A stretch of DNA of 64,000 bases, taken from Escherichia coli (lineage in GTDB: Bacteria; Pseudomonadota; Gammaproteobacteria; Enterobacterales; Enterobacteriaceae). The position numbers and the translations under genes were made by a program. The notes below the pieces were generated by a model. It saw only the letters and a program-made list of their open reading frames with translations. It did not search any database and was not told where the DNA came from. Where the stretch lies: assembly GCF_011045215.1 (NCBI RefSeq), contig NZ_CP049201.1; one strand, written 5' to 3'. The number at the start of each line of letters is the position of its first letter. Position 1 is the stretch's first letter. Shown one piece after another: positions 9,101 through 10,117 of this stretch.

Positions 9101-10117
9101 TTAGAACGAATATCCCACGCCGACACCTGCGCCGAAATCAGATTGTGTATCCGCAGAAATACCGGCTTTAAGTACCGTATGCGTTCCGGCATTAAATGAT
9201 GTTCCGACAGACACCGCAGATTCACCGTTGAAGGTTCCCGCTCCCGCTGACACCATCATCACGTCACCGGTTTTCACCTGTGGTTGTGAGGCGATAGCGA
9301 TGGCAGATGCAGTTCCCGCATTGGCTTCTTTACGATTGTCATCAACTTCGTTTTTCAGCGAATCGAAATGGTTATTGAGCGTGTTAATTTGCTGGCTGTT
9401 ATCAGCGACCCGGTTTTGGGTGTTGGTTAACTGTTGCTGCGTTTGGGTTACGTCTTGTGACAGGCTGTCAATTTGTTCATGTGCCTGGGCAGACTCCTGC
9501 GCCAGACTTTGCATTTGTTTATCGTATTGAGTCCTTTCATTTTGCTGTTGTACTGCCACATCGGTTGTCAGCGCATTCATTTTCTGCCCTTGTTCAGTGG
9601 CGGTGCGCTGATTAGCCTCATTTTGAGCCGCCAGTCTGGCATTAATCATTTCCTGATAATGCGCGGTATTTTGCGTATCTCCAGTCGCGGCGAGCGTTTT
9701 TTGTGTGGCTACGATCTGCGCCTGTTGCTCTGTAATTTGCGTTTGCTGGGCGTCAGTTACCGCAGACTGTCGGGCGTTGATCATGCTCTGATAACGGGCA
9801 GTTGTCTGTACATCACCTGTAGCGGCAACGGTTTTTTGTCCTGCGTCAGGATCTGTCTGGACAGTGGGAGTCTGAGTGGTATCAGGTGTTTCAGAAGGGA
9901 TGTAGTGATGTTCAGTCAAATAGGTATACGCAGCGGGGCTGTTGTCTGTGCGTTCTAAAAAGCGGGTAATCTTCTGCTCAATCTCCGATTGCGACATGCC
10001 AGAGTTAATGGCTGAAAGCTCTGTTGCCGCCGCTTCAATGGTATCACCAGCTAAAACAACAGGGCTGGATGTTGCTGAAATTATGAGTGCCAGTAAAGCT
10101 ACGTTTACAGTTTTCAT
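9101..10117 (-). CDS. Miniature trimeric-autotransporter-like outer membrane protein (signal peptide, coiled-coil stalk, YadA-like C-terminal anchor)
   Basis: 338 aa. Signal peptide MKTVNVALLALIISATSSPVVLA. Gln-rich heptad-like stalk with two ~45-aa internal repeats. C-terminus GTASAIAIASQPQ...GAGVGVGYSF closely resembles the YadA membrane anchor as recalled and ends in an aromatic residue. Confidence 0.65.
   Translation of the reverse strand: MKTVNVALLALIISATSSPVVLAGDTIEAAATELSAINSGMSQSEIEQKITRFLERTDNSPAAYTYLTEHHYIPSETPDTTQTPTVQTDPDAGQKTVAATGDVQTTARYQSMINARQSAVTDAQQTQITEQQAQIVATQKTLAATGDTQNTAHYQEMINARLAAQNEANQRTATEQGQKMNALTTDVAVQQQNERTQYDKQMQSLAQESAQAHEQIDSLSQDVTQTQQQLTNTQNRVADNSQQINTLNNHFDSLKNEVDDNRKEANAGTASAIAIASQPQVKTGDVMMVSAGAGTFNGESAVSVGTSFNAGTHTVLKAGISADTQSDFGAGVGVGYSF

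Follow-up and report, generated by a model that had tools for sequence, protein, structure and literature searches.

Internal duplications are common in the stalks of autotransporters, and the closest described systems for the locus considered here are YadA, Hia, AtaA, EibD and UpaG/EhaG, all of type Vc. In terms of stalk length, the neck-stalk region of BadA from Bartonella henselae is length-polymorphic (PMC7247748), and a 133-aa repeat module has been described in Brucella autotransporters (PMC7688925). At the level of stalk structure, beta-layers are defined by 2 or 6 extra residues within the heptads, and their consensus is [aliphatic]-A-T-K-[polar]-[DE] (Hartmann et al. 2016, PMC4786415). 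Finally, z0639, a gene of O-island 29 in E. coli O157:H7 EDL933, was published as coding for the transcription activator GmrA (Yang et al. 2018, PMC5826968).

The present analysis concerns a window of 64,000 nucleotides of Escherichia coli DNA (NCBI RefSeq assembly GCF_011045215.1, contig NZ_CP049201.1), in which a 338-aa ORF of the minus strand had been rightly recognised as a YadA-like gene in a preliminary description of the same DNA. Pfam PF03895 (YadA_anchor) is matched at aa 279-338 with an E-value of 1.1e-11 and 45 bits, for a cutoff of 22.7, and a phmmer search also matches this segment to the anchors of AtaA, Hia and YadA, the structures of which are solved. The ORF is 99.2% identical to WP_000859816.1, the 'YadA family autotransporter adhesin' of E. 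coli O157:H7. Besides, the arms of the gmrA deletion primers (PMC5826968, Table S2) map to positions 9063-9100 and 10117-10156 of the window and, since they exactly flank 9101-10117, the ORF corresponds to z0639/gmrA. The two are thus the same gene, with a 99.2% identical ORF, and what differs is the published role as a transcription activator. The features of the locus are the following:

9101-10117, minus strand: YadA-family trimeric autotransporter gene, whole ORF of 338 aa (ORF list, Pfam YadA_anchor, PDB anchor matches)
10049-10117, minus strand: putative Sec signal peptide, aa 1-23, MKTVNVALLALIISATSSPVVLA/GD (read from the sequence)
9902-10048, minus strand: small helical N-terminal domain, about aa 24-72 (AF2 monomer; kept across the allele classes)
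9704-9838, minus strand: repeat unit 1 (A type), aa 94-138, QKTVAATGDVQTTARYQSMINARQSAVTDAQQTQITEQQAQIVAT (self-alignment, unit profile)
9569-9703, minus strand: repeat unit 2 (B type), aa 139-183, QKTLAATGDTQNTAHYQEMINARLAAQNEANQRTATEQGQKMNAL (self-alignment, unit profile)
9284-9568, minus strand: C-terminal stalk, aa 184-278 (mostly in heptad phase, with N at d before the anchor)
9104-9283, minus strand: YadA-like beta-barrel anchor, aa 279-338, four strands per chain (Pfam PF03895, PDB, AF2)
8594-9016, minus strand: z0638, gene of a 140-aa lipoprotein (same orientation, 84 nt past the stop codon of the adhesin gene)

The likeness of the protein to YadA, Hia, AtaA, EibD and UpaG/EhaG lies in its four-strand anchor, its putative signal peptide and a stalk that runs into the barrel. 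At the N-terminus, which is the same in every full-length allele, the putative signal peptide reads as an n-region and a hydrophobic core followed by a VLA/G site. In the AF2 monomer, whose mean pLDDT is 68, three short helices come next within aa 27-69 (27-34, 43-56 and 61-69, with a pLDDT of about 75-77), in a domain (about aa 24-72) for which no Pfam match was found, and they are followed by a disordered linker rich in Pro and Thr. The model then shows one very long helix over aa 104-276, the sole break of which is at G146-D147, the helix being unbroken over 148-276 with a pLDDT of 80-95. In the part of the coiled-coil stalk that runs into the barrel, a heptad a/d pattern with N at d covers aa 198-265, and the register of the C-terminal stalk places V237, I244, F251 and V258 at a, and N240, L247, L254 and N261 at d; this presence of N at the d layers just before the anchor is a further resemblance to YadA-family stalks. 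The beta strands of the anchor are predicted at 287-296, 299-309, 314-323 and 328-336.

Compared to the members of the YadA family, however, the protein is very short (338 aa), it possesses a helical N-domain of about 50 aa and no recognisable head, its stalk unit is confined to 9 proteins among 1.84 billion cluster representatives, and no adhesion phenotype is known for it. Searches of Pfam and NCBIfam found no head-domain family, and no match to Ylhead, Trp-ring, GIN or neck was obtained in Pfam. As read from its sequence, the ORF is a short trimeric autotransporter without a recognisable head domain, the trimer itself being predicted, and the 'adhesin' label is unproven, which leaves its membership of the secretion family unaffected. 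The family search also returned spurious weak matches to SMC, Rad50 and other coiled-coil families. One relative of the protein is labelled 'chromosome segregation ATPase' in one database.

In the stalk of this gene, the preliminary description had reported two tandem units of about 135 bp visible at both the DNA and the protein level, and had proposed them as a possible site of length variation. At the protein level, the repeat is clear. The first residues of the two units are aa 94 and aa 139, a distance of 45 aa (135 nt), and both units carry the motif QKT[VL]AATGD; 25 of their 45 residues are identical, including 19 of the first 27. Their BLOSUM62 local score is 115, to be compared with 27.2±5.1 (maximum 59) over 5000 shuffles of unit 2 and with 26.8±5.7 (maximum 54) for the shuffled-stalk control, so that among the 10,000 composition-preserving shuffles performed in all, none reached 115 in either control. 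When the protein is matched against itself, the offset of 45 is by far the best, weaker matches being seen at 7, 14 and 21. Units 1 and 2 are therefore homologous at the protein level. At the DNA level, the pair is weak: in register, 77 of 135 nt (57%) are identical, the longest exact word common to both units is the 8-nt CAAAAAAC, third codon positions are identical in 36% of cases only, and 16 of the 25 conserved residues are specified by differing codons. A period-135 repeat was reported neither by Tandem Repeats Finder nor by a seed-based direct-repeat finder. The part of the preliminary claim which relied on DNA repetition is thus weak, and the sequence divergence between the units is precisely what that description had named as an observation speaking against its own proposal.

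The copy number of the units within the species was surveyed in 5426 complete E. coli genomes, about 1414 of which carry the gene, in three allele classes. In class 1, to which the 338-aa window allele belongs, the 270-nt two-unit region is present in 1030 genomes; it occupies a single full-length place, with 95-100% identity, in 1029 of them and never two places, the one exception being a genome where a large deletion took the 5' half of the gene and truncated it. Class 2, the long allele, is 80-90% identical in DNA to the window along the 3'-terminal 60% of the gene, and its two-unit region, of 291 nt, is full-length and single in 351 out of 351 genomes. Class 3 comprises 33 genomes, of which five are intact while 28, including the O145:H28 lineage, bear a 60-nt in-frame deletion of the unit A core bounded by a GCCAC direct repeat; the O145 gene has a frameshift besides this deletion. 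Individual alleles show further rearrangements: L013 (422 aa) is devoid of the unit-A core and keeps an intact reading frame, P0012 (345 aa) combines a class-1 N-terminus and a class-2 C-terminus with the switch located inside unit A, the long-type P0017 has independently lost one spacer heptad, and a 577-aa E. coli protein displays a 121-aa duplication that takes in unit 1. The unit pair is essentially fixed at two within E. coli, the only change at its site in the species being a single, old deletion at a microhomology, which one lineage has inherited. An identical copy number in all homologs, which had likewise been named in advance as evidence against a length-variation site, is thus nearly what is found within E. 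coli (1029/1030 and 351/351), although it does not extend across the family. Since the pair is old and fixed, it is neither a typing marker nor a site of phase variation.

The comparison of the class-2 loci shows that the frequent strain-to-strain variation in stalk length is carried by a separate 369-bp module located upstream of the units. The annotated class-2 CDSs (349-386 aa, without signal peptide) are truncations of a longer ORF, whose frame remains open upstream of the RefSeq start and there reaches the signal peptide that the window allele also has. The full class-2 proteins reach 471 aa with one module, 594 aa with two and 963 aa with five, the module being a coiled-coil segment of 123 aa (RDNGQDTAIQ...SNEQKQIV) inserted between the N-domain and unit A. 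At the fetched loci, the module copies share 92-99.7% nucleotide identity with each other. In the 351 class-2 genomes, the module occupies 612 places, with one to five per genome and a median of two, and copy numbers of 1, 2, 3, 4 and 5 were all seen among 60 rows sampled; the 338-aa window allele has none. The number of modules (0-5) thereby extends the protein at this locus from 338 to 963 aa. The 369-bp module is a variable-number coding repeat, whereas the unit pair is not.

This locus therefore resembles BadA and the Brucella autotransporters, in that its proteins range from 338 to 963 aa through a 123-aa module and, more rarely, through a unit of 38-52 aa; it differs from them in that the unit pair is a stable part of the stalk and that the window allele holds zero copies of the varying module. 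The length-polymorphic stalk at the z0639 locus is an ordinary member of a well-known kind. In a limited search of the literature, no account of the z0639 stalk repeats was encountered. In this context, it has to be pointed out that most long alleles are cut by RefSeq to C-terminal fragments without signal peptide, which hides the polymorphism from protein-based surveys. The 369-bp module could serve strain typing as well as tests of the relation between stalk length and function.

Beyond E. coli, a profile HMM of the unit was run on the best 120 homologs, all from Escherichia. Nearly all of them have two units, spaced by 38, 45 or 52 aa, i.e. in steps of one heptad (7 aa); two singleton metagenome proteins, with spacings of 39 and 41 aa, lie off the 7n+3 series and may be either assembly errors or real exceptions. 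Three units are found in a 480-aa allele of E. ruysiae (52+52 aa, the A copies sharing 94% nucleotide identity) and in a 497-aa allele (38+38 aa, 88%), which the sources record under Escherichia sp. as well as under E. coli and whose length exceeds that of the 459-aa E. marmotae type by precisely one unit. In the genomes of E. marmotae, E. ruysiae and the carriers of the 497-aa allele, the gene occupies the same locus. In the three-unit alleles, it is A that was copied each time, the exact words common to the copies measuring 41 and 43 nt, and the sequences indicate that these A-A' duplications are recent and independent in the two lineages. By comparison, A and B share 51-57% nucleotide identity and words of 8-9 nt in the two-unit alleles (338, 471, 594 and 459 aa), while the old A and B of the three-unit alleles share 51-56%, with words of 8 nt in the 497-aa allele and of 17-20 nt in E. 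ruysiae. With the A unit of the window, orthologous A units share 67-79% identity and B units only 44-56%, which places the A/B duplication before the separation of the Escherichia species. When all 1.84 billion cluster representatives were scanned with HMMER, the unit profile retrieved 9 proteins only, namely the family at this locus and three autotransporters that are more remote from it, one of E. coli with two units, one of Enterobacteriaceae FGI57 with a single unit, and one of metagenomic origin, also with a single unit. All three retain K-[TA]-[VI]-x-A-x-G-D-V-x4-R-Y-Q-x-M. Among 19 units aligned, the invariant columns are K2, A6, G8, D9, A14, Y16, Q17, M19, A22 and A26.

Taken together, these data make it likely that the two units are paralogous, anciently duplicated and fixed segments of the stalk, and that the module is its variable part. 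The units would be paralogous coiled-coil segments in the stalk of a short YadA-family autotransporter, and the comparison of A and B units shows that the old tandem duplication from which they arose was already there when E. coli, E. marmotae and E. ruysiae separated. It further shows a core, K-T-[VIL]-x-A-x-G-D-x4-A-x-Y-Q-x-M-x-x-A, which is held by purifying selection on a background of saturated synonymous sites. Because they have no common DNA tract longer than 8 nt, the units presumably cannot misalign during replication or recombination, and this inability would match the copy number fixed at two in E. coli. Three routes are proposed for the rare changes in length. In one, the A unit would be duplicated anew, the two copies then having identical tracts of 41-43 nt; unequal exchange would be likely only after such a duplication, by virtue of these identities. 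Another would be microhomology-mediated deletion, and yet another the addition or removal of complete Gln-rich heptads between the units, in the spacer, where changes are presumably kept only as whole heptads because others would dephase the coiled coil. The 21-nt periodicity of this Gln-rich spacer DNA, which would point to slippage by heptads, is marginal, with an identity of 0.44-0.50 at lag 21 versus 0.40-0.48 at lag 24. As for gain and loss as such, unequal crossing-over and slippage are the candidate mechanisms that the sequences suggest.

Regarding the structural role of the unit, each copy would consist of a heptad run with a surplus of three residues, giving lengths of 7n+3 (38, 45 and 52 aa), and the irregularity would lie around the invariant G-D, at the predicted helix break. 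The pLDDT at this break is moderate, about 66-74 in the AF2 monomer, and manual assignment did not find a single consistent heptad register across the unit. For the test of a beta-layer, a linked-trimer construct was modelled as a single chain of 3 x 77 aa with 40-aa Gly-Ser linkers and a matched alignment: the helix break falls at the same G-D, but the mean pLDDT of 40 makes the model unusable. The search of the unit profile against solved structures gave only an insignificant match, to T7 gp17 (E 9.4). Given the 7n+3 length and the location of G-D at the sole predicted helix break, each unit probably contributes one non-heptad joint, as far as the model goes. The likeness to beta-layers is that the short conserved motif ends in Asp and would interrupt the heptads, that a helix break is predicted there and that the unit length is off a multiple of 7; however, V-A-A-T-G-D matches only 3 of the 6 consensus positions, and the surplus is 3 rather than 2 or 6, unless a second irregularity is present. 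A more speculative extension, which is considered rather unlikely, would be that the unit is an undescribed stalk element specific to this family, a helix-breaking 7n+3 joint acting on the phase or flexibility of the trimer or in ligand binding, and that E. coli tunes the reach of the fibre from 338 to 963 aa with 123-aa modules arranged around two invariant joints; GmrA would, as a corollary, be an outer-membrane fibre and its effect on motility indirect.

These views have to be weighed against other explanations of the same data. The resemblance of the units might be a by-product of a Q/A/T-rich composition combined with heptad periodicity instead of reflecting common descent, as the stalk is biased and as the weaker self-matches at offsets of 7, 14 and 21, together with the spurious hits to SMC, Rad50 and other coiled-coil families, could suggest. 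Chance composition is nevertheless ruled out as the source of the repeat by the shuffles (115 versus a maximum of 59 in 10,000), and the specificity of the unit profile, whose 9 matches among 1.84 billion representatives all belong to the family or to related autotransporters, speaks against it, as do the ten columns invariant over 19 units; the probability left to this explanation is negligible. The proposal made in the preliminary description, according to which the pair is an active site of length variation where slippage or recombination modifies the stalk between strains, can rely on the third unit of E. ruysiae and of the 497-aa allele, on the partial unit-A deletion in 28 genomes including the O145:H28 lineage, on the presence of one or two units in distant relatives, and on the precedents for variation in autotransporter stalk length such as the BadA neck-stalk (PMC7247748). 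However, the units of the window allele are only 57% identical as DNA and their longest common word is 8 nt, the pair does not vary in 1029 of the 1030 class-1 genomes or in any of the 351 class-2 genomes of E. coli, and it is the 123-aa module that varies from one to five copies in those same 351 genomes. The proposal is already largely refuted for the window allele, and as a general reading it is improbable. What survives of it are the rare unit changes elsewhere in the family: the site has changed length over evolutionary time, and it is not variable in the window allele or in the species at large.

Another explanation accepts the fixed pair and concerns its cause: the unit would be a functional module, whether a beta-layer or stammer joint, a ligand-binding site or a self-association site, and the number two would be fixed by selection rather than by mere immobility. 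In favour of this can be cited the strong conservation of the motif despite saturated synonymous sites, its retention in the distant autotransporters, the 7n+3 unit length with a break predicted at the invariant G-D, and the fact that V-A-A-T-G-D has the aliphatic residue, the Ala and the terminal Asp of the beta-layer consensus (PMC4786415). Nevertheless, the other half of this six-position consensus does not match, no solved homolog of the unit was found, the reading frame of L013 is kept without the unit-A core, meaning that one core is dispensable for the ORF, and deletion of OI-29 left the adherence to HeLa and Caco-2 cells unchanged (PMC5826968). Selection on the number of units is hence possible, although on balance doubtful. 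Finally, the gene could code for a cytoplasmic activator as published for GmrA, with the repeat region lying in its DNA-binding domain. This role was attributed on the basis of the motility defect of the gmrA deletion mutant, which is relieved by complementation, of EMSA with the His-tagged protein on the fliA promoter, of ChIP-qPCR, and of a putative DNA-binding domain predicted by CDD (PMC5826968). A cytoplasmic role as transcription activator nonetheless conflicts with the putative signal peptide, the YadA_anchor and the matches to solved autotransporter anchors, from which export is predicted. In addition, no DNA-binding family was found at threshold in the ORF with Pfam and NCBIfam, the sole nucleic-acid-related matches being sub-threshold ones to coiled-coil SMC (22.9 bits for a cutoff of 567), of the sort that gives rise to labels such as 'chromosome segregation ATPase'; a match of this SMC type probably underlies the published 'DNA-binding domain'. 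The effect on motility could be genuine and yet indirect, and a cytoplasmic GmrA is very improbable. In the light of the autotransporter architecture, the functional assignment of GmrA deserves fresh examination.

As regards the genomic context, the locus is bordered by ybbJ and the 120-aa ORF on one side, and by the lipoprotein gene and cueR on the other, and the three-gene insert made up of the 120-aa ORF, the 338-aa ORF and the lipoprotein gene corresponds to O-island 29. Family and PDB searches yielded no informative match for the 140-aa lipoprotein or for the 120-aa ORF, and a SadB-like helper role of the z0638 lipoprotein, which was considered, received no support from them. The primers for z0638 and z0640 flank the lipoprotein gene and the 120-aa ORF, respectively, and z0638 adjoins the adhesin gene in every Escherichia locus examined.

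The autotransporter ORF of the window is z0639/gmrA of O-island 29, a gene set that comprises a 120-aa ORF, the autotransporter, a lipoprotein and a 67-aa ORF; the primer arms for z0639/gmrA fall at 9063-9100 and 10117-10156. The genes considered here, in window coordinates, are the following.

6811-7986 and upstream, plus strand: HlyD-family type I secretion adaptor gene
8594-9016, minus strand: z0638, lipoprotein of 140 aa, its gene lying 84 nt beyond the stop codon of z0639
9101-10117, minus strand: z0639/gmrA, autotransporter ORF of O-island 29
10484-10846, plus strand: z0640, 120-aa protein, flanking island gene

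In the literature, GmrA is a cytoplasmic activator of fliA transcription to which a "putative DNA-binding domain" is ascribed (PMC5826968). The sequence shows another architecture, with a predicted signal peptide at the N-terminus, a stalk of coiled coil and a C-terminal YadA anchor, and the sole DNA-related matches of the protein are sub-threshold ones to SMC coiled coils. As for its neighbours, family and structure searches with z0638 and z0640 gave no informative match, the MqsA-antitoxin-like match of z0640 being very weak (E 0.08); z0638 might be a biogenesis helper comparable to SadB.

Four independent acquisitions of O-island 29 have been proposed (PMC5826968). However, the entire set occupies the identical ybbJ-cueR site in E. 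marmotae, E. ruysiae and genomes with the three-unit, 497-aa allele (loci L006, L008 and L010, set against window 8390-10950). Since the site is the same in all of these, the comparison of sequences suggests that O-island 29 would rather be a locus of ancestral origin that K-12-like lineages have lost. One strain with an allele of the O157-like class has an IS1203 element (IS3 family) inside the stretch covering the 120-aa ORF through the lipoprotein (NZ_AP026087.1, 600712-603725; match row H31).

Upstream of unit A, the first of the two 45-aa stalk repeats, a tandem module of 369 bp (123 aa) is found in four compared loci, L003, L005, L016 and L015, the last being the allele of E. coli 18KM2445 (L015, 227-3118). 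Its copy number ranges from 0 to 5 among E. coli strains, with none in the window allele, and its copies are 92-99.7% identical, the predicted length of the autotransporter extending from 338 to 963 aa across these alleles. A database search with the module returned 612 places in 351 genomes.

RefSeq start calls shorten such long alleles to fragments of 339 (L015) to 386 aa devoid of the signal peptide, and place some of the starts at Leu or Ile codons. The module region carries no annotation in many genomes. The true open frame runs on upstream to a conserved predicted signal peptide, MKTVKLSLLAVVVA... The shortened calls are these.

L002, 3605-4654
L003, 3569-4618
L005, 3259-4419
L014, 1383-2522
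L015, 2099-3118

The O145:H28 lineage and O157:H7 differ in allele class. In the former, a 60-nt deletion removes the core of unit A (match rows H236-H263). In the one O145 strain examined, RM12522-C8 (L012), a frameshift is added to this deletion, and the copy is therefore annotated as a pseudogene.

Finally, the HlyD-family adaptor gene, which shares an overlap with the beginning of cueR, belongs to the RTX-like locus described as syntenic between EAEC 042 and O157:H7 (PMC2808357), and in related genomes RefSeq annotates a T1SS permease/ATPase beside the adaptor gene.
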